In this document: piece by piece, positions 3,117-49,961 of the stretch
Numbering within the stretch: position 1 is the stretch's first letter
How the letters are laid out: every line of letters begins with the position of its first letter
NCBI GenBank assembly: GCA_046563655.1
Contig: CM102289.1
Coordinates: 9,300,001 to 9,364,000 of the forward strand
Direction: 5' to 3'
DNA length: 64,000 nt
Origin: Yuukianura sp. NJ FZ-2021
Taxonomy: Eukaryota
Notes under the pieces: model-generated
Told to the model about the DNA's origin: nothing
Database searches by the model: none
What the model saw: the letters and a program-made list of their open reading frames with translations, nothing else
Made by a program: the position numbers and the translations under genes

Positions 3117-5726
3117 TTAGGAATGAAATACAGCTTTTGCTTTAGCAATTAAACCGAAAATACTCCAAACTAAAAAAAATACCTTATGAATACCTTGAAC
3201 AACAAAACGCTGGCAACTGATTAACAACTTTTTTGCCCGTTTCAGTACACTGAAACTGAATTTTGTTTGGGTCAACTCTGCAAAGAATATGGTACAACAT
3301 AATGTTACAGCAGCAAAAAGAATGTAGAAGGCAGTGACAATATTTCCTTGTAAAGTCACTACAGCTGGTTGGTTCCACTTCTCACTTTTGGATTTTTCAT
3401 ATTCATCAATCAGCTGATCCGTTGCATCAGGTACAAATATTTTGTGCCATTTAATCCACAAATTTAGAATTCCAGACGCTATGAATCTTTGCTGCAACGT
3501 TTTGTAAAATGTCGGCGCAAATTCACTTCTGACAGTAATAAGGCGGTGATTTTCAAATAAACCTGCTTCGCTTTCCTTGAAAACTGTGTTGTGGATCGTA
3601 TCTCTATTCCAAGAAGGCACCAAATATTCATTTTTGCGACTTGTTTTGTTTTGGATTAGGTGGATGTAGGCATGGAAACCGGTAATCGTTTTCTGTCGTT
3701 CTACAAACGCCGTGCGGTGACAATTTGACAGTAGTTCGTACAGTCGGCAGTACCGTATCATATCATAAGAAAAGTTAGAAACGATACTACCGATATCTAG
3801 GTAGTGGAACATCATTGGAGAGGTGAGATTGTAAAATTTACCGGTATTTCCCTTTAATGATGATTCATATTTTAAAAACCGGTATTTATATAGTCGATTG
3901 TGCACAAACGACTTTTCTTGATCCCAGTTACATCCGTTATGCGCCGACTTACATAGAAACGGATTCTGTAAGTCACCAAATATCGTTTCAGACCGAAAAT
4001 TGCATTTCTCTACGTTATTCTCTACACTGCATACGCAATCCTCATTCAGTTCTTCTGTGGTATCAAAATCGTTATACGGTAGCCGGAACTTCACCGTATG
4101 AAAATTATACAATTTGAGCCAAATGTCATGTGACGTAAATATGAAAAAATATTGTAGTTGCGGAAACGTTTCGTACATATGCTTTACCGGGAAACTTGAG
4201 ACGAGTTGTGTAACTACAAGGCCTTTGTATGCATTCGTTATTACGACAACAGCGAGAAGCCAAGTACCCAAAGCGTATTTGATAACTTTTTGAATTTTGC
4301 CTGAATTTTGGAAAAATTTGGCGGGAATATCTGTTCCAATTTCTAGAGAATGAGAATAAGTGTACACGGTAACTGTAAAGTAAAAGTTCAAAATTTCCCA
4401 AACTCTGTTTCGATTTTGTGCCGTCAAAAAGAACATTACAGTTAGTGTCGTCGGTAATAACAGAATAGCAAACGTGATGATAAAAGTCCATGATTCGGTA
4501 TCATACGGTGTAACGTACAGTTTGAAACTAAGAAAATTTTCTACTCCATCGCAGGTAACAAATTTGTATTGCTCTGATCCTATGTAGATTGGGTAATAAT
4601 CGAATTGCTCAGGAATATTTTCTGTTACTAAAATTTTTTGTTCTGCCCAAGCAAGCAATCGCCCACACGGGTCATTCCCTGCGTCGTCTATATAAATGTC
4701 CAAAGTTGCCGTTATCGTAAGCAGCGCAATAAGTTGGCCAATAGTACCCAGAGAACGTCTGAATTTAGGTTTATCAAACGGCGACTTTGGTAAGTAGTTT
4801 TTGCATTCTTCGTTTACGCCGTATTGCACAACATTAGACACATTTATATTACCGTCTCTAGAGACTCTTATAAGCAGGTTTCCCTTGGACGTTAAATTTT
4901 TGATCATATCGTCGGCCTGTTTTCGGCAACTGGAATTTGAGCAGTTACCGTCAAGGCGCCATGGGTACGTCAACTCGTTGTGAAACAAAAGCCTAGATAG
5001 TGTTATAGTTGCTGGTCTACGCGTACCTGGCAAACCATGATCTGACGTCATGTAGTTGTGCTGTATAATGATACCTGTGAGAATTTTACTTCTGACGTGA
5101 TCTTGAACTATTTGTTGGGCAAAGTTGTTAATGTTTTCAGAAGAAAATATATGAATATGTATGGGTAAGTAGGTGATGCTTGGTAAAAGATTTTCTTCTT
5201 GAACCGCCGTAGATTCTGTTTCAAGAATGAAGGCTACTTTCCGTAGGACGTCCGTAAACTCTAGAGAAGATAATAATAATGTGGTAGATATATACTATAT
5301 CTGCTATACACAACCCCCTCTTATACATACATCTAATACCGTGTACTATATATTATATAGATATATGATATATATAGATATGTATTATGCATACTTACTC
5401 TTTTCAGTGACGTACTGATCTTGTTGAGGGCATATGATAAACTGTACATAACATCTGAGACTTTTCCGAGGATGAGTGAAATGTCGATTTACTGTGCTCT
5501 TAATGCCTATGAACTGAGATCCAATGTTATGTGTGTACAGTTCAATTGGAATGTTCAGCTCTCGAGGGAAAGAAGATGGCGCTCCAGGAACTTGAATTTC
5601 AAGCAAAGATGCAAAACAATCTCCATAAAGATTGATGATCGATTTCACATAAACTGGGTCGATATTTTGAGCAACAAGCTGCTTATTTAACGCCAGTATA
5701 AATACAAAAACTATATAACGTTCCAT
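3117..5726 (-). CDS. Divergent ionotropic receptor (IR/iGluR-like chemoreceptor), 2 exons (5726-5399, 5260-3117), about 823 aa
   Basis: Signal peptide MERYIVFVFILALNKQLVAQ. A GT-AG intron (5398-5261) joins in frame to the long ORF. IR hallmarks: pre-M1 LYVTPYDTESW, M2/M3 WLLAVVVITNAYKGLVVTQL, S2 end QRFIASGILNLW, and M4 TLQGNIVTAFYILFAAVTLCCTIFFAEL. Confidence 0.8.
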
Positions 5727-6900: not shown

Positions 6901-7554
6901 CACATCCACATCACATCACCGTCAAAATGAGAGAATTCAACTGTTGATGATTTTTAGATCCTGAGCGCCATCTTACAGTGGAGGTGCAATTTGGCTCTCC
7001 AGCCCGCGAAATCCTATGGAAATAAATTTTGAAAAAAAAAACTAGAAATACAAACTAGAAATACCAGATTGGTACTATATAAATTGGTACATTGGTACTA
7101 CCAATGATGAGGATGACCGTGAAAAATAAAATCGAAGAATAAACGATTAATTTTTAATTAATCTTTATGTGTTTGACAAATTAGTGAATTAAATTTTGGT
7201 GTTGGCATAACTGGAAACAAGAATTAATCGAGTCGATATTGAGCAAGTCTAATGCTGTAGTCGTCAGGGGCGCTTGAATTTAGTCGAAGAAGGTCAAGGT
7301 GAACGGTGAACTGCGTAATCTGTGATCTAATCATTAGATTCTAATGTACAATGATGAAATTCAGTTTACATACTAGACCCTATTCTATCATAGAGTTGGA
7401 ATCTTTTAGAATTTAGAGTGTAACCTAGATAAACTCACTTTCACATTTTTAGCGATTTTCGATCCCCTCTGTCGTGGTGGTTTTTGTACTCTCTCGTCAA
7501 GCGTCAAACGTTTCGTTATTGCATATTGTGGTGAACGGAATTCCTGCATTAATC

Positions 7555-8693
7555 ATGGATCAAATATTTTCGGAGAATTATAAGCTTGGGGTCATTGGCG
7601 GAGGGAACATGGCCAAATCAATTCTTTTCCCACTATTCGATCGAAGTACTACGAATCAAGCGAAGCATGTTTTCGTTCGCTAATATGATTGATTGATGTG
7701 ATAATTCTGTTTTAATTTATTTTTAGATTTGGTGGATCCGAGGTATGTTATCGTCGGTGGAAACACGGCTGGACCGCTGGAAGTATGGGCGGACAGGGGG
7801 TGTACAACTTATACTAGGGAGAACGGTAGGTGGTCGGTTAATTGTTAAACATCTTAACTTGAGTCATGTTAATTACATAATTTAATTTTGTTTTGTTTTC
7901 GACTACTAGTGGATATAGTTTGCCAAGATGCTCAAGTGATTCTATGGGCCGTGAAGCCGCAGATTTTTGCCAACGTTGTCAAAGCAGTGGACGAGATAGT
8001 TCTATATAAGAGATTACATAGCCCCATTCCGGTCATCCATATTTCTATAATGGCGGGAATTACACTCTCACAATTTACCGACATAATTGCCACTGCAAGT
8101 GGATGCAAATCTGTTAACGGTGGATACAAACACCAACCAATAACAGTTCGGACAATGCCGAATATTGGACATCGTGTGGGTGCTGGATGCACAGGTATTT
8201 TTTTTTAAATGATTTTTGGTGTAAAACTAAAAAAATATTGTAATTTTGAAGTATCTTTATAGTGTTCACAATTGGAAAACTTGACGAGGCCAATGATCTA
8301 GATGTTAAGAAGATCGTTGAATCCCTGTTCTCACCAACCGGCATTTGTCGAGAAGTTCCTGAGTCTCAAATCAATGGATTTGGGGCTCTAACTGGATCTG
8401 GAGTTGCCTTTATGTTTCCAGTGCTGGAAGCATTATCCGATGGAGCTGTGAAAGTTGGCATTCCAAGGGCAGTTGCTTTAGAAATGGCTGCCCAAACTAT
8501 GAAAGCCGCTGCTCAACTTTATCTTGAAGAACGGACTCATCCAGGACCATTGAAGGACGGCGTTTGTAGTCCTGGAGGAACAACGATTGCTGGAATTGCT
8601 GAACTGGAGAGAATTGGTGTTAGACATGGATTCATCTGTGCAATTGACGCTGCAAACAAAAGATCCGAAGAATTAGGGAAACTTGCGCAATAA
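7555..8693 (+). CDS. Pyrroline-5-carboxylate reductase (copy 1), 4 exons
   Basis: Rossmann motif LGVIGGGNMA, then AVKPQ, ISIMAGIT, RTMPN, TGSG, and the signature VCSPGGTTIAGI. Confidence 0.93.
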
Positions 8694-9727
8694 CATACTA
8701 CACGGAAACAATCGTGTAGAGAAACGACTGTGCTACTTCAATTTCCAACTTCATCGTGGCAATAAAAAATAGTTCGGAACAGAATTTCAATGTTGATTCA
8801 GAAATGTATAATATGAAAAACGAACATATAATAATATTATTATATGTTATTATATGTACTGTTCATATTTTCTATGAGCAGCATATTTAAAAAAATTGGT
8901 TTTGTATTAGGTTTGCCGTACGGGTACGTTTTTAAGGGCTGACTAAATCTCGGAGAAATCGAAGAGGTAGAGACGCTGCTAGTTTTTTGGCGCGATTTTT
9001 GAGTTTCCACAGATTGCAAAATTGCAGTTTGAGTTTGGCAGTGTGGACGTGGAGGAGTACGAAACAGGTTATTTGCAGCCATTTTGGAAAATTGTTGGCA
9101 ATTGACTTTAATAAGTGTTTGTATAACTGAACGAACGTAGAAATAATCGGTTAGTTATTTTAATATTATTCATTTAATTAGACTTTAATTAGTATTGACC
9201 TTTTTTAACAAAGCATCAACATGACCTTGATATTTAACTGAAACACTAGTTGTTTCGCCGCTGCGCTGTATAAGATAAAAAGTAAACGCTCATCTTTAGT
9301 TCGTTTCCGTATTGCCAGTTTACCTAATTTTGCCACTGTGTTTTGCATTAATCCATTCCGCTTGCTTTGTTTATGTTCTTTGTAATGCGACATTAGTTTT
9401 TGGCGGGCGCCCGGTTGATTACTAGTCATTTGTTACTTAAGTTTGTTGTTGTTTACATTAGGTTTATAATTATAAACTTTTATGTAATTAATGTTTTCAT
9501 TAAGTGGGTGTGGGACTATGTTAATCGACGGGATGGAAGGTGGTTAGGTTTAGGTATTGATGTGTCGATGTGTGCCAAATATTTTATACGTTTATGAACT
9601 CTACTCTAAAAGGTCAGATCACTAATCCTTTGTTATTTGTATTCTTTTTCAGATTCCCGCGTTTAGCGAAGTATCTCGCCGCCGCCATCTTGGATTACTT
9701 CGTTTCTAACATCCTGTGGTGTTACTG

Positions 9728-11478
9728 ATGGCATTGACCCTGGTTTCACATGGAGATGAGGCAAGTGCCCCTGAAGCTGAAATGATTATTTCAACAGAAG
9801 TCGAACGTAAGTGTAATCTACTAACTTTGTTATGTTGTAATGAGATTTTTACATGCAGCGAAATCTATTACATCGATTTCTTTCATAGATGACAACGATC
9901 AGCAGCATCAGGACATAGAATCAGAGTTACAAGCGATGAATTCCAGTGGCAGCGGGTATGAAGGGAGCAGAGAACACGGGAAGGCTCGTATTGCAAGGTT
10001 AAGACAGCGATTGCATAATACCGCCGTAAAACGTTCCGGTGGCAGAAAGAAAGATGATATTTGGCACTTCTTTACTAAGCAACTGGGTGAAAATGGGAAA
10101 TCAGTTGCGGTTTGTAATACTTGTGGCAAGGGAGTGTTCCCAAAAGCTTACGTTTGCAAAATCCACATCTCAAAGTGTCAAGTTCCGAAGAAGAAAGGCA
10201 CAGAATCACCCAGGGTAGGAATTAAATCTGAACCGGGATCGGAATACGCTGGAACTTCAACTTCAGCTGGAGTTGTTGACCAAAGATCAACGTCGACTCA
10301 TCATTTGACACTAGAAGACAGCATGGAAGTAGTTACAGGGATTGCGACTACTACAAGATTTCCATCCGGACATATATTTGGTATTGTAGGAGGCGGAGTT
10401 ATAGCAAAATCTATAATATTTCCATTGATTGATCAAGGTAAGCAGCCTGACACCTTGTGCTAATTGTTACATAACTTAATTGCATAAAATTGACTTGTGC
10501 ATAACTAACTTGTGTTTTAGGTTCGTTGGATCCTTACAACGTTCTCGTTTCTGGAAATACGCCTGAAAATTTGGAAGCTTGGACGGAGCGTGGATGCACT
10601 GTTGTTAGCAACACTGGTAAGGATACATCATTTCTTTCGTGTGGATTATGTAAGTTATGTAACGTGTTTCCGATTATGTAGTTTATGTAAGTACTTTCCC
10701 GTTATGTAAAGTTTATTATGGTTTTTGGCAGAAATTTTTGAAGAAGCTCGTGTCATCATATGGGCACTGAAGCCGCAAGTATTTCCCAAGGTCATCGAAG
10801 AACTGACTGCATATTACGCCGATAAGTGTAAACATGCCGTCAAAGTTAAATACCCATTGCACATTTCCCTAATGGGTGGCATTACGCTGGAAGAATTCAC
10901 AAAACGTATTGGCAACGTTTATGGAGTTCACAGTTCAAGAATTCCGCGTACAATTCGAACAGCTCCGAACATCGGTCATCGTGTCGGTACCGGTTGTACT
11001 GGTAAGTCGAAAACTAAAAGTAAGCAACTAATCAACTAATTAAGTTACTTTTACCTTAGCATTTACTATGGGTCCAAGTGCCGAAACAGCAGACCGTAAA
11101 ACGTTAGACCTACTTTTTGCCTCGACTGGAATTTGTATGGAAGTTTTGGAGGCGGAGCTTAACGGATTCGGAGCCTTGACTGGATCTGGTCTTGGCTTTA
11201 TGTTTCCTGTGCTGGATGCCTTGTGTGACGGAGCTGTGAACATGGGAATCCCAAGAGATGTGGCTCTCAAATTGGCAGCACAAACCATGAAAGGAGCTGC
11301 TGAATTTTTTCTCAAAGAAGGCAACCATCCAGGGGCTCTCAAAGATGGAGTGTGTAGTCCAGGCGGATCTACGATTGCTGGAATCATTGAGCTGGAAAGA
11401 GCTGGAGTTCGTACGGGATTTATCAATGCTATTGACGTTGCTAGCAAGACGTCGGCAGAACTTGGCAAGTTGAATTGA
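9728..11478 (+). CDS. Pyrroline-5-carboxylate reductase-like (copy 2) with N-terminal BED zinc finger; exons about 9728-9806, 9889-10437, 10521-10616, 10732-11001, 11060-11478
   Basis: One exon encodes DIWHFF..AVCNTC..KIHISKC (BED finger) and continues without a stop into FGIVGGGVIAKSI. Later exons give ALKPQ, RTAPN and VCSPGGSTIAGI. The three P5CR introns sit at the same positions as in copy 1. Confidence 0.88.
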
Positions 11479-12025
11479 CGGAGTACTAGGCGGAATTGGC
11501 AATGTCATGCGGGAAGGAAGGCTGCGTAAAACTTCGTAAACAGTAAGTTGATGTATTCATGTATTGTTAATATTAGTTTATTTACTATTCTTTATTATAT
11601 TGTTTGACTTTAAATTATCTTAAATACCTTATGTAGTAATATCTACAGTATATCTTCTGAAATCTATCATGAATTTTAATTAAAATTTCAATTTTCCAAA
11701 ATCTCAGCTTATTACTTAGTGGCGCGAAATTGGTTTGCGGAATGAGAGAACAGGCAAGTGTCAGTTCAGTCAGCTGCTAAAACTTAAAAGTGAATCACAA
11801 ATTACTCGACAATTATCAATTAATCACCGCGCCCTAATCGATTTTAGTAATTAGTTGGTGTTGGACGAGAACCAAGAACGATACTAAGGTAAGCAGTGCT
11901 TACTATTAAGCATTAAGCAGAAAGTTTGATAAATGATTTATGATAATGTCCAAGTATTAAATTGAAATTTCAGATATTCCAGTCCAGTCTCCCTCCAGTA
12001 CTTACAGCACAATTCATCAGTCGTC

Positions 12026-13413
12026 ATGCTCCTAGAAATTTTAATATTTTCAGTTACCGTATTCCTGCTTCTTGTCATCAATGACGTTAAGAAGAGGGCA
12101 CAAAAAGTTTCCCAAGACATTACCGGTCAACACATTGTTGTAAGTAAAAAATAACCGGTGTACTCTTTATACTGGATTTACTAAGTTCTAATTTCTGTCG
12201 TCCCATTTAGATTACTGGTGGTTCCAGTGGAATCGGGAAGGAAATTGCTTTCTTGGCAGCAAGGAGAGGAGCCAATGTCACAATTCTTGCAAGAGACATT
12301 GCCAAATTGAATACTGCTTGCACACAAATTCAAGAACATCGTAAATCCCATAATCAGAAGATCAATTTTTTCAAAGGTACTTACATGGTGAACTAAAGTT
12401 TAGCAATGTCTAATTTTTTCCCTATGCATTATTCCAGTTGACGTTACAAACTATGAAGAGACTGAATCTGTAATGAATCGATGTGAAATTGAAATCGGAC
12501 CAGTAGATATCCTCATCAATTGCGCTGGTTACGCTTATGCTGGGAAGCTAGAAGACATTCCTTTGACTCATATTCGCGTAAGACTAAATACTACCAAGTA
12601 TCCTCCGGTGTTGATACATAACGTTCCTGTTTCAGGGCATGATGGAGATCAACTACCTGGGAGCACTGCATGCCACAAGAAGTGTCCTACCATCAATGAA
12701 GTCCAACAAAAGAGGGAAAATTGCTTTAGTGTCGTCAGTTGGTGGTCTAACGGGACTTTATGGCTATACTGCTTATGCTGGATCCAAGTTTGCCCTTCGA
12801 GGTTTCGCTGAAGCTCTGCAAATGGAAGTGAAGCCGTTTAATATCAGCGTTACGCTGGCATTCCCAGCGGATACTGACACGCCGTGCTTCGAAGAGGAAA
12901 ACAAAACGAAACCACTAGAGACTAAGCTGATAAGCGAAACTGCTGGAGTTCTGCAACCTGATAGAATGGGACGAGTGATCTTTGAGGATACCTTGGTTAG
13001 TCCATCTATTCGATTAATCGATTTCATCAATTAATTCACTGTTTCAAAATATCTAGCTTCTGTTTTTCATATTTTTGATCAGGCGGAGGATTTCTTTAGC
13101 ACTACGGGTTTTGATGGAACTGTTGTGACTATCGCTTGTGCCGGTATGTCTCCGATGTCTTCGTTTTTAGGACTCGTGGCTCAGGTGAGATTGTCTCTTT
13201 CTCCATAACTTACATTAGTAGTTATGTAATCATGTTATAAAACGACCTAAACTAACCTTACATTAACATAATCTAAGCTAATTCGTGTGCTACTTGGTGT
13301 AGGTGCTGTTACAGGGTCCTCTTCGTCTAGTATCGTTGGGATATCTTTGTTACTTCAACCGAATTGTACAACGGTGTTCGAAGGAGAAAGAGTCGCAGAA
13401 GAAGTCAGAGTAA
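12026..13413 (+). CDS. KDSR: 3-ketodihydrosphingosine reductase (SDR family)
   Basis: N-terminal hydrophobic anchor, ITGGSSGIG, NCAG, YAGSK (YxxxK), FPADTDTPCFEEENKTKPLETKLISET, and a C-terminal hydrophobic segment. Stop at 13411-13413. Confidence 0.92.
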
Positions 13414-22147: not shown

Positions 22148-24775
22148 TTAATCCAACTCCCATGTGTAACTTGACCTGATGGGCGACTCACCGTGGTGAC
22201 CGTGACGCTGATAGTTGCTGTCATTTGGAGACGAACCGCCTTGCGTAATAGCATCCGAGATGAGATTGAACGTTGTCAACTCAGAGCTGAACTTGTCCGG
22301 TCCACTGGTGATGTCAGGGAATCCAAAGTAGTTGGACGTTGCTCCAAAGGAAAAGCGAAGAGGACTGTTGGATCGGTAGCCTGGATCGGGAGGAGGGAAT
22401 TCCGGAGTTGGAGCAAAATTTGGCTGGAGATGCATCGGGAAGTCGTGTTTGGACAGTCTACTCCAAGGTGATTGCGGATTTGACGATACGTCGGTGACCA
22501 CACTGGACCCGCCGTAACATCGGTCAGTTCTCATGTAATATTGATCACTTTTGTCCTCCAGAACACTGGAAATTGCTTGATTTCCGAAGTTGTGGCAGTG
22601 GTAGCTGTCATGACGGCGAGCGTTAAGTTCCTTAGTAAGTGCAATATTTTCCGCTGATACTTTCCTGGCTAGCGCTGCAGCGGTGTGATACGACACCGGA
22701 ATGCGGAAATTTTTTATCCCATTATCGCTTGCAGTATTTCGGCCATTTTGCTTTCCGTTTCCCTCAATATTCGCCCAATTACTTTCCTTGTCGCTTGATT
22801 TCCTCCAACATTTCTTTCGTACTGGAGATGGAGCTGACATTTCTTCAGAAAATTTTTGGTGACCAATCAAATCGCTGGATTTCGTTTTGTCAACATTTAT
22901 GTTATGGTCGTTTTCCTCAGTTGTAGAATCAGGCTCTGAAACATCGACGCTGATTGGCTGACTCTTGTCACGAGGTTTGTCCTGATCACAGCTGATTGGT
23001 TGATTCTTGTCCTGATCACAGCTGATTGGCTGTAGGTCGAGACCGAAGATGTCAAATGTTGGCTCTTGATTGTAGCCGTAAATGGGCCACTTGTTGACAT
23101 TCTCTTGGCTATTTGTGTCAAACTGAACACAGAGTGCAGTATTGTAGTTGTCTTCTAATGTTTTGGCGTGATTTGTAATGGCAACGGAGGATATCTCGTG
23201 AGAATTGGCAACATCGTAGGGTGTGTTGGCGCCAACGAGTGTTTTTTCGGTGTCACATGATTGGTTGACTGTGTCCGTATGTGATTGACTGGCTATATCA
23301 TGTGCCTTTTCCAGAGTTTTGACCTTGTCATGCCTATCAAAATTTTCAGCGTCAGGACGCGGTTTTTTGTTTTCCGAAAGTCTCCGGTCAAACCGGAGTT
23401 TTGTTCTGGTTTTTTCCTGCGGTTTGAATATTTCCGCGCTCCCGGACGTTCGTCTGTCCTCCGTCAGCCGACGTCGATAATGTTCGTCGTAGATGAGAGG
23501 GCGTTTGTGCGGTTTCTTCGGAGTGCTGGTGACATCGAAGATACTGAATTCCTGGATTTTGGGAGAGAAGATGCTGGAACGATGCTGCTCAGTATTGTTG
23601 GACATACTTGGACAATGCTGCTTATGTTCGGAGTAAGTAGACGTCACTGACGAACTACTCTGAACTGCCAGTAGCGGGAGGTGGCCTACTTCGGATACTG
23701 GCAGTACTTGATCAGGAACGTGGATTTCCAGTGGCTTGTTGATTCTGGAATATTGCTCGAGCTGTGATTGGCTGCTGACTTTGAGAGATGACGGGAGTCT
23801 GGAATTCGGTGTGGTTTTGTTCAGTTCCTGGTCCACTTTGGCCAGCGATTGGCTGCAGCGATTAACCAAAATCGCTTTAAGTTTGGGCTGGAATGTTGGC
23901 GCTGGAGTTTTCTGGCGAGGAAACCTTTGAGCCGCGGTGTTTGAAAAATCAAAGGTGACACTTTTCCTCTGATTTTGGTTGCGCCTGGCATTCAAATTTT
24001 TCAACTGCTTCGTATTAATGCGAAATACTTTGACAAAACATGACTTTAGCATAATTTTTGAAGGTCGTCTAGGTTCTAGTGCAATATCAGATGACCTACG
24101 GAACACATTTTTCAAAATGTTGGCTTTGTGTCGGTTGTTTGCTGCTTCATTTTGGAGCTTCGCAATAGTTTCTTTTGTAATTCTGAGCTTGTAGTGTGGT
24201 TTATGCTTACTGCTGCCGTAATTTCCCAATATTGATACTATCATTGACTTTCTCCCGGCAGGATTTTGGTCCAAGCAAGAACTGTCTTCCGATTTCTGAG
24301 TAGTCGATTGCTGATGATTTTCAGATTTCTGAGTAATCGATGGTTTATATTCAGACTTCTGAGTAATCCATTGCTGGTTATCGGATTTCTGAGTATGCGA
24401 TTGATGTGCAGATTTCTGAGTAATCGGTTGCTGATTTTTCGATTTCTGAGTAATCGATTGCTGTTCCACTGGTTCAAGTAGTGGCATCATGCCCCTGGCT
24501 TTGGGTTGAGTCATTTGGTAATCCAGCAAATCGTTGTAAGATTTGATAACTCTTTTGTCTTCTCGACTTAAATCTCCGCTAGGTGTCGTTGCGAAGAGTC
24601 TATCCCGGGTTACCTCTTGTGTAATATGAAGTGAATTGGAAATGACACGAAATGCTGCAACATGTCTCGCTTCCGGTGGACAGATTCCTTGGTAACTCTT
24701 CATCATTTCACGCTCACTCTTGTCTGGAAGTTTGCCCGTCCTAAGAAGTTTCCGAATTTCCAAATACTCGTCCAT
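22148..24775 (-). CDS. Intronless 875-aa orphan protein, largely S/Q/K-rich and probably disordered, with internal repeats
   Basis: An uninterrupted 2.6-kb ORF in AT-rich DNA. It contains repeats xITQKS (about 6 copies) and QPISCDQDK (2-3 copies). No family confidently recognised. Confidence 0.8.
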   Translation of the reverse strand: MDEYLEIRKLLRTGKLPDKSEREMMKSYQGICPPEARHVAAFRVISNSLHITQEVTRDRLFATTPSGDLSREDKRVIKSYNDLLDYQMTQPKARGMMPLLEPVEQQSITQKSKNQQPITQKSAHQSHTQKSDNQQWITQKSEYKPSITQKSENHQQSTTQKSEDSSCLDQNPAGRKSMIVSILGNYGSSKHKPHYKLRITKETIAKLQNEAANNRHKANILKNVFRRSSDIALEPRRPSKIMLKSCFVKVFRINTKQLKNLNARRNQNQRKSVTFDFSNTAAQRFPRQKTPAPTFQPKLKAILVNRCSQSLAKVDQELNKTTPNSRLPSSLKVSSQSQLEQYSRINKPLEIHVPDQVLPVSEVGHLPLLAVQSSSSVTSTYSEHKQHCPSMSNNTEQHRSSIFSPKIQEFSIFDVTSTPKKPHKRPLIYDEHYRRRLTEDRRTSGSAEIFKPQEKTRTKLRFDRRLSENKKPRPDAENFDRHDKVKTLEKAHDIASQSHTDTVNQSCDTEKTLVGANTPYDVANSHEISSVAITNHAKTLEDNYNTALCVQFDTNSQENVNKWPIYGYNQEPTFDIFGLDLQPISCDQDKNQPISCDQDKPRDKSQPISVDVSEPDSTTEENDHNINVDKTKSSDLIGHQKFSEEMSAPSPVRKKCWRKSSDKESNWANIEGNGKQNGRNTASDNGIKNFRIPVSYHTAAALARKVSAENIALTKELNARRHDSYHCHNFGNQAISSVLEDKSDQYYMRTDRCYGGSSVVTDVSSNPQSPWSRLSKHDFPMHLQPNFAPTPEFPPPDPGYRSNSPLRFSFGATSNYFGFPDITSGPDKFSSELTTFNLISDAITQGGSSPNDSNYQRHGHHGESPIRSSYTWELD
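24288..24465 (-). repeat. Coding minisatellite (about 27-33 bp unit, about 6 copies) encoding QxITQKS
   Basis: GATTTCTGAGTAATCGATTGCTG-type unit repeated on the + strand. Confidence 0.85.
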
Positions 24776-26483
24776 TGTTATTTTGTGTCCAATTTATGCT
24801 ATTATCAAGATCACAAACGTCTGAAATTACAAAAATTACATGAATCAATACCAATTTGGCACAAAATTACTAAAAAGCTGCGTGTTTTGACCTAAAACTA
24901 AAAATAAGTGTGTTTACTCTGTTCTAAAACTGATTTTTTGAGCTATTTTGGTCAAAACGTGTTTTAGCATTTTTTTCCCCCTGATTTTGGTTTTTTGTTA
25001 TCGTTCAATCAAAAACTGAAAAATCTTGACAAACTTTCTCCAGACACACAACCAGAACTTTCTCCCAAGCGTGTTTTTGCACTAACTCGTTTCTTTTTTT
25101 TCACAGTTTTTCGCAATAACTGTCCCGTTCTTTATAAATTTTCAAGGAAGCGAGCACTACGTGTGAATATTGAAATAGTTGGTGAAAGGAGCGTGTCTTT
25201 GTAGAAGCCTGTTGAATTTCTAAAATATTTAGGAGACTATTCTGCTAAAAGCGATGCTTCGGACTTGACATACTTAGGGTCCCAATCACACACCGCCCCG
25301 AGCCCACTCCGTTTGCAAATAAAATGGCTCCACATGGACATAAATTGGCAATTGAAGGTGGAGCTACTGGCTTATGCTGAGCTGTAAGAGCCGCTTCATC
25401 ATTAACTTATGTGGATCACAATCAAAAACTTAGTAAAATTTCATTACTTCCGTGACACTAAAGTAAGTACTTTTTCAACTTGCGAAAGCCCACATATAAA
25501 AATTTACTGAATTTTAGCCTCTATAACTTAAGTAATTCAATTCCTAAACATATTGTGTTTCGGAAAGTTTTTTGTTTCGTGTTTTACCGAACTTTTCTGG
25601 TAGAATTTATTGTATTTGCAATCCATTAAAAAGTGACGCACGACACTTCAAAAAGAAGCTGTAGAGTCGATGCTATTTTAGTTTGATGAAATGTCGGGAT
25701 GAGGATTAAAAATAGAGGCACAACTGGAATATTTCGATACTGCCAATACTTACTACAAAATGTACCACTAACTTTGGCTTAACTTTTACTAAACTGACTA
25801 AAACCAACATATACCTGGCTGGTCTCGGACGTTTGTTTCTTCTAACCCAAAAAATAAAACTAACTACGAGTAAAACATTTTATTTGGTTTTATACAAACA
25901 ACTGTATAAAAGTATTCATAACATGCAAGCAGATTTTCCAAAAATCCAGCACATTTTTCGGAAATCTGCAAATCCGTCTCCTCCTCCCATTAACTCTAGA
26001 ACTATTTTATTATAGGTAGCCTACTATTGTCTTTTAATGTTAATTCTAATTGGGATTATTGTGCTATCCAGAACAATACAATGGCGTTTGAATGGCAAAG
26101 ACAATCAAATTGTAATTTAATAGGGTTCAAAATTAGTTGAAGTCACGTCTAACCTGAGTTGGCAGTAGAAGTTCATCAGCTTCCAAAATCCACAGCCCAC
26201 AACACTGGCTCTTAGAGCGCGTTGATCTCGGTTAAGTTTAATTTAACTAACTTCTTTAAGATCAACACACCTCCTTTGCTTCTTATCGTATCTGGTTAAC
26301 CACAAAACCACAACTTTAGCTAATCCTGACACGCAAAAATGCGACGCTGATTGTGCCAGGATGTCAGTGTTAAAATAACGTAATTATTTGTAATTAGTTG
26401 TTAATTAGTCAACTTAATTAATTAATTATTAGTTAACTTTAGTAATCGTAGAAATTGAGGTAAGACGCGCGTATAAGGCATGA

Positions 26484-48769: not shown

Positions 48770-49961
48770 ATGGTAAGGATAAATCTTGGTCTTTGGATTA
48801 GAAATATAAGTTGAAATATTCCTAATCGATTACTACATGTTTTTAGAACACCAATGCTGAGAATGAAAAAGCGGCTGGGAATGCCGAGTACAAGAAGAAG
48901 AACTTTGAGCCGGCGCTGGAGCATTATCGAAAAGCAGTGGAACTGGATGGAACAAACATGACGTACAGGACCAATATAGCTGCCGTTTACTTCGAGCAGA
49001 AGAAATACCAAGAATGTATCGACGAATGCCTGGCGGCCATTGATATAGGACGTGAGAACCGTGCCGACTATAAGCTAATTGCCAAGGCCTTCTCTCGTAT
49101 GGGTAATGCTGCCAGGAAAATGGGAGATAACAAGACTGCTAAAGTTTACTATGAGAAGAGTCTCAGTGAACACCGAACTCCTGAAACACGAGCACTCGTT
49201 TCCGAAGTTGAAGCACTCATCAAAGAGGAAGAAAGAAAGGCTTACATTGATCCAGCTAAAGCAGAAGAAGAGAAGGAAAAGGGAAACGATTACTTCAAGA
49301 AGGGAGATTATGGAACTGCAGTCAAATATTATACTGAGGCTATCAAAAGAAATCCGGAAGATCCGAAGTTATACAGCAATAGAGCCGCCTGCTACACCAA
49401 ATTAGCTGCCTTTGACCTAGGACTCAAAGACTGCGAACAGTGTCTGGCACTGGACCCTAAATTTAGTAAGCTTCAATTTCACTTTGCTGAGTATTTCTTA
49501 GCCAATTGATAACTGATCTCTGATTGTTTTTGTTTTAGTCAAAGGCTGGATTCGGAAGGGAAAGATTCTACAAGGAATGCAAGATGCAGGAAAAGCGATG
49601 TCAGCTTATGAGAAAGCTTTGGAGATAGATTCCAATAACGCAGAGGCTTCTGAAGGTTACAGACAGGCAATGATGGCCGTGTACTCGGATCCCGAAGAGG
49701 CGCGAAAACGTGCACTCGGCAATCCGGAAATTCAGTCCATCTTACGCGACCCTGCAATGAGAATGATTCTGGAGCAAATGCAGAACGATCCAAAGGCTCT
49801 GCAAGAGTAAGTTGCTAAGCAACATCAAACTTTTTGAATTCTCGAATCTCGATTGAATTACTAATTTGCTTCTATTCTGTTGTTTTAGACATCTCAAAAA
49901 TCCTGAAGTATCCGAGAAGATCCAGAAGTTGATTGAAGCTGGTATCATCGCAATCCGTTAA
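48770..49961 (+). CDS. STIP1: Hop/STI1 co-chaperone, short form (TPR2A-TPR2B-DP2), 320 aa; exons 48770-48772, 48847-49465, 49539-49806, 49889-49961
   Basis: M|NTNAENEKAAGNAEYKKKNF..NMTYRTNIAAVYFE (TPR2A), AEEEKEKGNDYFKKG..YSNRAACY (TPR2B), and PEIQSILRDPAMRMILEQMQNDP..KLIEAGIIAIR (DP2). Confidence 0.93.

Follow-up and report, generated by a model that had tools for sequence, protein, structure and literature searches.

An intact gene model joining a divergent, putatively BED-type zinc finger in frame to a tandemly duplicated pyrroline-5-carboxylate reductase

What would a zinc finger of a kind typical of transposases do at the front of an enzyme of the proline pathway? The question is raised by a stretch of 64,000 nucleotides from Yuukianura sp. 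NJ FZ-2021 (assembly GCA_046563655.1, contig CM102289.1, positions 9,300,001 to 9,364,000 of the forward strand), referred to below as the window, in which two genes for pyrroline-5-carboxylate reductase (P5CR) lie in tandem. The upstream gene, g1, is unfused, and the downstream gene, g2, carries additional N-terminal residues that include a Cys2-His-Cys finger. g2 is a real, intact chimeric gene model, a P5CR with an in-frame N-terminal finger. We read the finger, from its sequence, as a divergent BED-type finger of a subtype expanded in springtails, and the enzyme part is apparently a functional P5CR. That this intact chimeric gene is an extended P5CR copy making a 470-residue, finger-bearing enzyme tethered to DNA or to another ligand is the reading we prefer, at a probability of roughly 0.55.

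The models of g1 and g2 were built by script from coordinates, using the sequence of positions 7500-12500 of the window and the list of its stop-to-stop frames. Their parts are as follows.

7555..8693, + strand: g1, the unfused P5CR paralogue, 301 aa, four exons (7555-7645, 7727-7825, 7910-8194, 8263-8693)
9728..11478, + strand: g2, the fused P5CR copy, 470 aa, with exons 9728-9806, 9889-10437, 10521-10616, 10732-11001 and 11060-11478
9728..9806, + strand: g2 exon 1, the ATG and first 26 codons of the acidic head, donor GTAAGT, joined in frame to exon 2
9889..10437, + strand: g2 exon 2, with acidic head, basic arm, finger, linker and Rossmann start (translation P0001), acceptor TTTCTTTCATAG, donor GTAAGC
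g2 residues 1-56, + strand: acidic head, isoelectric point (pI) 4.1
g2 residues 57-84, + strand: basic arm flanking the finger, pI 12
10038..10178, + strand, g2 residues 77-123: Cys2-His-Cys finger, read as BED-type, GGRKKDDIWHFF-x13-CNTC-x13-HISKC, with G78, R79, W85, F88, C102, C105, H119 and C123, pI 9.5
10179..10358, + strand, g2 residues about 124-183: linker, some 60 residues long, in which Ser, Thr, Gly and Pro abound and small and polar residues make up 64%
10359..10437, + strand: start of the P5CR homology, aligned to g1 residues 5-30, with the Rossmann GxGxxA at G194-A199 (10389-10406)
10521..11478, + strand: g2 exons 3-5 (10521-10616, 10732-11001, 11060-11478), the remaining NAD(P)H domain and the dimerisation/catalytic domain, with SPGGST at 11356-11373

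The introns of both models are all GT-AG, all of phase 1 and 58-115 nt long, and the three within the P5CR part stand at homologous positions in g1 and g2. Residues 5-299 of g1 and 184-469 of g2 are 55% identical over 298 columns (blastp, E 6e-107), and the last exon of each gene matches the full profile of P5CR_dimer in Pfam (PF14748; E 4.4e-35 for g1 and 1.7e-32 for g2). These comparisons bear out what an earlier note on this DNA, made from the letters alone, had described as tandem P5CR genes with identical intron positions. The protein closest to g1 is P0019, a 285-aa P5CR with which it shares 67% identity. The ATG of g2 at 9728 has an in-frame stop 18 nt upstream.

By eye, a candidate non-coding 5' exon lies at 8940-9068, its end near 9068 reading ACAG followed by GTTATT, and an acceptor, TTTTTCAG, precedes 9653; together with 9653-9727 this exon would make the 5' untranslated region of g2 a spliced one. 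Intron 3 of g2 holds two tandem 28-nt copies (10644-10699) that are 79% alike, and a perfect inverted pair of 13 nt (10466-10478 and 10651-10663) connects introns 2 and 3.

Is the extension ahead of the enzyme coding, and is it joined to the enzyme? Residue 5 of g1 aligns to residue 184 of g2, so that the extension amounts to about 180 residues and not the 215 or so first estimated. The motif KRSGGRKKDDIWHFF...CNTC...HISKC is encoded at 10038-10178; the residues named in the earlier note are all there, with a spacer of 13 residues, not 11, between WHFF and CNTC. From residue 184 the protein reads FPSGHIFGIVGGGVIAKS, the Rossmann start, with GIVGGGVIAKS at 10380-10412. Finger, linker and Rossmann start share a single exon (9889-10437) and a single stop-to-stop frame (9825-10463). 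The fusion was therefore not created by exon joining, and the earlier contention that it is no artefact of the gene model stands. Ahead of the homology, 156 codons are free of stops in the P5CR frame, which has a chance probability of ~1.8e-4 at the trinucleotide composition of the window. We also computed a log-odds score of codon usage, trained on 24 long open reading frames (ORFs) of the window. For every segment of the extension the P5CR frame scored above zero and the two other frames below it. A fairer null was drawn from stop-free windows, overlapping one another, in DNA outside ORFs of at least 70 aa. The score of exon 1 (+9.4 bits) was reached by 0.4% of these windows, and that of the linker in the P5CR frame (+10.4 bits) by 2.3%.

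What kind of finger is it? The BED signature consists of an aromatic W and F, followed by C-x2-C-x(n)-H-x(3-5)-[HC], and the g2 finger conforms to it with W85, F88, C102, C105, H119 and C123. A phmmer search with exon 2 against 1.84 billion representative proteins returned 17 matches at E<=1e-3, fifteen of them on the finger (E 2e-11 to 8e-4); P0006 and P0017 matched the low-complexity linker only (query 131-169) and were set aside as finger relatives. Thirteen of the 15 finger relatives have zf-BED listed at E<=0.01 (the exceptions being P0011 and P0015), and 8 of the 15 carry it at or above the Pfam cut-off of 20.6 bits, with scores of up to 119.7 bits. The best matches are ODM88933.1 of Orchesella cincta and CAL8111347.1 of O. 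dallaii, with the UniRef name 'BED-type domain-containing protein', and the closest matches are 34-47% identical to the finger of g2. When the g2 finger was aligned with seven shorter relatives, G, R, W, C, C and H were invariant. Little or no variation is seen in the columns of W85, F88, C102, C105, H119 and C123, whether 8 or 25 fingers are aligned, and g2 keeps all the zinc ligands and family-invariant residues.

A profile comparison by hhalign of 25 fingers of the subtype, g2 included, with 8 Pfam-positive fingers from P0004 and P0018 gave a probability of 97.6% (E 2.8e-12, 48 columns), a value that is inflated because W, CxxC and H were required by the regular expression that selected the fingers in the first place. 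The AlphaFold model computed for 9984-10214, with the finger alignment as input, has a short helix followed by a hairpin and a further helix, and its core has a predicted local distance difference test (pLDDT) score of 83-92. The homology to Pfam-positive BED proteins, together with the signature of ligands and aromatic residues, supports the earlier assignment of the finger to the BED type. The stretch KRSGGRKK, formerly described as resembling a nuclear localisation signal, is indeed basic; it is the conserved arm of the finger family (G and R invariant) and need not for that reason be a separate signal. Only one Pfam row was returned on exon 2, DUF2180 (E 0.0088, 16.6 bits, under its own cut-off), and we rejected it as a chance match of the cysteine pattern.

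The GGRKK-arm subtype of BED finger (P0002-P0016, for example ODM88933.1) has a 13-residue spacer, a final Cys and, when counted by regular expression, often two to four repeats per protein. In 7 of the 15 proteins it falls at or below the zf-BED cut-off, and it is therefore probably under-annotated.

Does the enzyme behind the finger look like a working one? The PF14748 match of g2 covers profile positions 1-105 of 105 (112 bits), and plant and human P5CR chains of known structure in the PDB, PYCR1 among them, match its last exon at E values of about 1e-28 (1.8e-28 and below), with SPGG[ST]T kept. GGGVIA at residues 194-199 satisfies the Rossmann pattern GxGxxA/G, and the P5CR part can be aligned over its whole length with proteins annotated with both PF03807 and PF14748. 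On single exons of g2, scanned one by one, PF03807 gave no Pfam match, which we attribute to the exons being fragments. An alignment was made of g1, g2 and 119 P5CR matches, these being the best 120 listed (of 568) less a protein of 1656 aa that was dropped. Of the 80 columns conserved in at least 90% of the 119 P5CRs, g2 keeps 56, and g1 likewise keeps 56. Eighteen departures are common to the two genes, and the six private to g2 are all conservative (M>I, A>G, M>A, A>G, E>D, T>S). It is on these grounds that the enzyme part of g2 appears functional. Among the shared departures are MPNTP, which has become MPNIG or APNIG, and DAVTGLSGSGPA, which has become NGFGALTGSG.

A tree of 16 rows (g1, g2 and 14 of the 120 listed matches, comprising the closest, named arthropods and a few bacteria) groups both genes, within a divergent clade, with Folsomia 'P5CR 3' and unnamed sequences from the environment. 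The branching order obtained, (g2,(g1,P0019)), has modest support (82/75), and from it the duplication of g1 and g2 is probably older than the split from the species of P0019.

The best named matches, Orchesella for the finger and Folsomia for P5CR, point to a springtail as the source of the DNA. On the preferred reading, a P5CR gene would have been duplicated in tandem in a springtail-like lineage, and the downstream copy would then have gained about 180 codons at its 5' side. A transcript beginning upstream of 9728 would give the 470-aa protein, which would still reduce pyrroline-5-carboxylate (P5C) to proline with NAD(P)H and would still form the dimers or higher oligomers of P5CR. Human and plant P5CR structures are decamers with peripheral N-terminal domains. 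Since P5CR oligomerises, each assembly would display several fingers, held on tethers that the Ser/Thr/Gly-rich linker probably makes flexible; the fingers, binding zinc and DNA, would place the enzyme on DNA, on chromatin or on another ligand of the finger. The acidic head beside the basic finger would resemble an activator module.

Several results speak against this reading, some of them touching the nature of the finger and the coding of the segment around it, and others its history. The earlier note had proposed a Pfam scan as a check. Run exon by exon, this recovered P5CR_dimer on g2 and missed PF03807 on the exon fragments, as described above, and for the finger itself it failed: hmmscan of P0001 gave no match of zf-BED (PF02892, gathering score 20.6 bits) on exon 2 at E<=1, an outcome that the note had named among those which would refute it. 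Between CxxC and His the g2 subtype has a spacer of 13 residues, where the Pfam-positive fingers taken from P0004 and P0018 have about 17, and T-x-L-x2-H is absent; this is why, in our view, Pfam misses the subtype. The structural comparisons were no firmer. Foldseek with the finger model returned nothing at E<=0.001. ZBED1 (2ct5), ZBED2 (2djr) and ZBED3 (9l4j) stood at ranks 3, 6 and 7 with E values of only 0.46-0.64, being the only ones of the top seven rows to span 55-57 columns. VIA-align to solved BED fingers gave Z scores of 3.3 (root-mean-square deviation 2.5, 44 aligned), 2.4 (3.2, 50) and 2.3 (4.3, 50), tied with those of unrelated small zinc modules. In a profile search of the PDB with the finger alignment no row was significant, ZBED2 (E 0.12) and ZBED1 (E 0.23) lying amid noise. 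As to coding, the fairer codon-usage null reached the score of the finger in 11% of windows and that of the segment before it in 40%; the test is low in power, because the true Rossmann start, serving as control, itself came out at only 21%.

The same adverse evidence includes a start codon inside the linker. Met172 (10323-10325) stands in a good context for initiation, with A in position -3 and G in position +4, and precedes the first residue aligned with g1 by 12 residues; by this context and position a short, plain P5CR could be translated from it after an internal transcription start. In that case g2 would mainly make an ordinary P5CR, and the stretch encoding the finger would be either an alternative 5' exon in rare use or a recently captured piece that the main protein has yet to include or has already lost. 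Most such fusions arise as alternative isoforms beside the ancestral transcript, according to bioRxiv 10.1101/2020.05.07.082677. The failure to find a fused homologue favours this explanation as well. No search returned a protein joining a BED finger to P5CR, and the collections covered include annotated springtails such as Orchesella and Folsomia. None of the 17 phmmer matches to exon 2 has a P5CR domain by Pfam, and a word-based search of longer proteins with exon 2 found no fused relative at E<=0.001 among 610 candidates. From the P5CR side, PF02892 is absent from the best 120 of 568 matches, which are 254-316 aa long except for one ankyrin protein of 1656 aa. In metagenome contigs exon 2 had 107 pattern matches, none of them confirmed by tblastn. 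The same architecture, which the earlier note had suggested looking for in related genomes, was thus found in neither protein collections nor metagenome contigs. The best P5CR match is 67% identical and the finger matches 34-47%, which suggests that the protein collections do not include the species itself, so the missing orthologues are informative for annotated springtails only and not for close relatives. What speaks for the long protein is the stop-free frame upstream of the homology, and a stretch from finger to Met172 that is coding-like in its codon usage in the P5CR frame alone. Moreover, the finger shares its exon with the Rossmann start and so cannot be spliced out; the short form would need a second promoter inside the ORF. 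We regard the short P5CR as the main product as unlikely, while taking it more seriously than any other alternative.

A chimera that is expressed but young and neutral, an accident of exon shuffling after the duplication with a functionless finger bound to decay, seems to us clearly improbable. It would fit a fusion present in a single genome, with no fused orthologue in the proteome collections just named. The last adverse point bears on it too: the branch of g2 is longer than that of g1 (0.89 from the common node, against 0.16+0.43 = 0.59), as a new function or relaxed constraint would produce, and g2 has thus probably evolved faster than g1. Set against these is the finger, whose zinc ligands and family-invariant residues are all intact. 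The tree, with its modest support, dates the duplication before the split from the P0019 species, a date that concerns the duplication and not the capture.

That the finger is a real zinc module which does not bind DNA but makes contacts with proteins or RNA, and might for instance anchor the enzyme in an assembly of the cytoplasm, we consider the least probable of the alternatives: the best BED row in the structural comparison is ZBED3 in mouse oocyte subcortical maternal complex (SCMC) and cytoplasmic-lattice complexes (9l4j_E, Z 3.3; 9sfp_e, Z 2.5), an instance of a BED finger within a protein complex, but the basic arm GGRKK and the positive charge of arm and finger suit nucleic-acid binding, and BED fingers of Hermes bind the DNA of transposon ends (PMC10368747).

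Where might the finger have come from? A derivation from a transposon, as the earlier note had it, found no support in the locus. Pfam detected neither a transposase core nor a hAT dimerisation domain in any g2 exon scanned. Between 8700 and 10700 the search for terminal inverted repeats or target duplications gave only short AT-rich or chance pairs, none of which brackets the finger; an old insertion would have lost them. When the 15 finger relatives were compared with the whole window by tblastn, matches were confined to 9873-10388, and the finger is hence unique in the window. Rfam gave no family in 8600-11700. Among the 15 finger relatives P0015 alone has DUF659 (PF04937), a domain which we take to be hAT-associated, and has it in place of zf-BED. 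We infer a possible transposon origin from the usual nature of BED fingers, and a host gene with several fingers would be an equally good donor.

The g2 finger shares with BED fingers (ZBED1/2/3, DREF, BEAF-32 and hAT transposases) the W-x2-F, the C-x2-C, the spacer and the H-x3-C, a predicted hairpin and helix, and a significant sequence similarity to Pfam-positive BED proteins. It differs from the usual ones in its shorter spacer, in lacking T-x-L-x2-H and in falling below any Pfam score, and, where known BED proteins combine the finger with a transposase or a regulatory domain, g2 combines it with an enzyme. Nearest to it are ODM88933.1 of Orchesella cincta and CAL8111347.1 and CAL8080406.1 of O. 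dallaii, which have the same subtype, GGRKK-x2-W-x-F...NGK-x2-A-x-C-x2-C...H-x3-C (phmmer E 2e-11 to 2.5e-5). These proteins have two to four fingers by regular expression and no enzyme domain recognised by Pfam, whereas g2 has one finger and a P5CR; their identity to the g2 finger is only 34-36%, which does not mark them as its donor. The enzyme part, for its side, agrees with pyrroline-5-carboxylate reductase (EC 1.5.1.2; PYCR1-3, ProC) in its full length, GxGxxA, dimerisation domain and SPGG[ST]T. Unlike PYCR1-3 and ProC, g2 has the N-terminal extension, and both g1 and g2 sit in the divergent clade with the Folsomia protein.

Fusions of this general kind are on record. Host genes capture transposase-type DNA-binding domains by exon shuffling (bioRxiv 10.1101/2020.05.07.082677), domestications of the CGGBP kind are events of the same sort (PMC8097297), and in plant BED-NLRs a BED finger is built into a host protein (PMC7761493). 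Like SETMAR, KRABINER, CGGBP1 and the plant BED-NLRs, g2 joins a DNA-binding module typical of transposases to a host gene. Unlike them, it has a metabolic enzyme and not a regulatory or immune-receptor domain as partner, its finger lies in an exon of host sequence, and its transposon origin is conjectural. g2 may thus be classed as a finger-capture chimera of a known type with an unusual, enzymatic partner.

The architecture appears undescribed within the literature searched, in keeping with the earlier note, whose author knew of no description. P5CR was found paired with neither 'BED zinc finger' nor 'zf-BED' in that literature. Co-mentions of P5CR and 'BED domain' are, to judge by their titles, unrelated protein or gene lists, and the main text of the F-box/TE (transposable element) preprint contains no pyrroline, P5CR or zf-BED.

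New regulators are known to arise from chimeras of transposase-type fingers and host genes, in which the partners on record are mostly regulatory or receptor domains. A finger on an apparently working enzyme of core metabolism would differ from these, and might be either a source of proline or NAD(P)+ tethered to chromatin or, in the manner of PutA, an enzyme with a second role as transcription factor. For PutA the moonlighting role is that of an autogenous repressor (PMC5293562). Like trifunctional bacterial PutA with its ribbon-helix-helix domain, g2 encodes a proline-pathway enzyme with an N-terminal domain of DNA-binding type; the analogy is one of logic only. The enzymes differ (P5CR versus PRODH and P5CDH), as do the DNA-binding fold, the direction of the pathway and the kingdom, and there is no homology. 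We therefore offer only as a speculation, and a doubtful one, that the BED-P5CR protein might be a eukaryotic counterpart of PutA logic, a proline-pathway enzyme that doubles as a chromatin factor responsive to metabolites or to NAD(P)H. Its oligomer would face DNA with several BED fingers and acidic heads, and P5C, proline or the redox state would alter how it binds or how active it is. If this were true, proline metabolism would be coupled directly to transcription in springtails, animals known for a stress-related use of proline.

The unfused paralogue lies 1 kb upstream, and the pair would therefore serve as a clean natural experiment, in which one could read directly what a finger does to an oligomeric enzyme. 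BED-P5CR is so far a well-formed gene model in one genome, and not yet more. Without expression of the long form, the locus would be no more than a P5CR duplicate that has captured an upstream ORF, and its interest would be minor.

The neighbouring genes are ordinary housekeeping ones. A scan for bacterial promoters and terminators was set aside, since it is not meaningful for a eukaryote and its counts were at the level of shuffled sequence. E2F-type motifs, TTTSGCGCS, occur at 8986-8994 (+ strand), 11721-11729 (- strand) and 49699-49707 (- strand), with motifs upstream of g2 and of the next gene; three against 1.09 expected is not significant, at least three being present in 9 of 100 shuffles. 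The other genes of the region are split into short exons, and two single long ORFs, at 22151-24793 (- strand, 881 aa) and 3120-5294 (- strand, 725 aa), match no Pfam family at E<=1e-5; they may be lineage-specific genes or genes derived from mobile elements. The next gene downstream of g2, at 12027-13031, encodes a short-chain dehydrogenase (adh_short, E 5e-23) with an N-terminal membrane-like segment and a TGGSSGIG motif, a layout that is presumably that of an enzyme resembling 3-ketodihydrosphingosine reductase.

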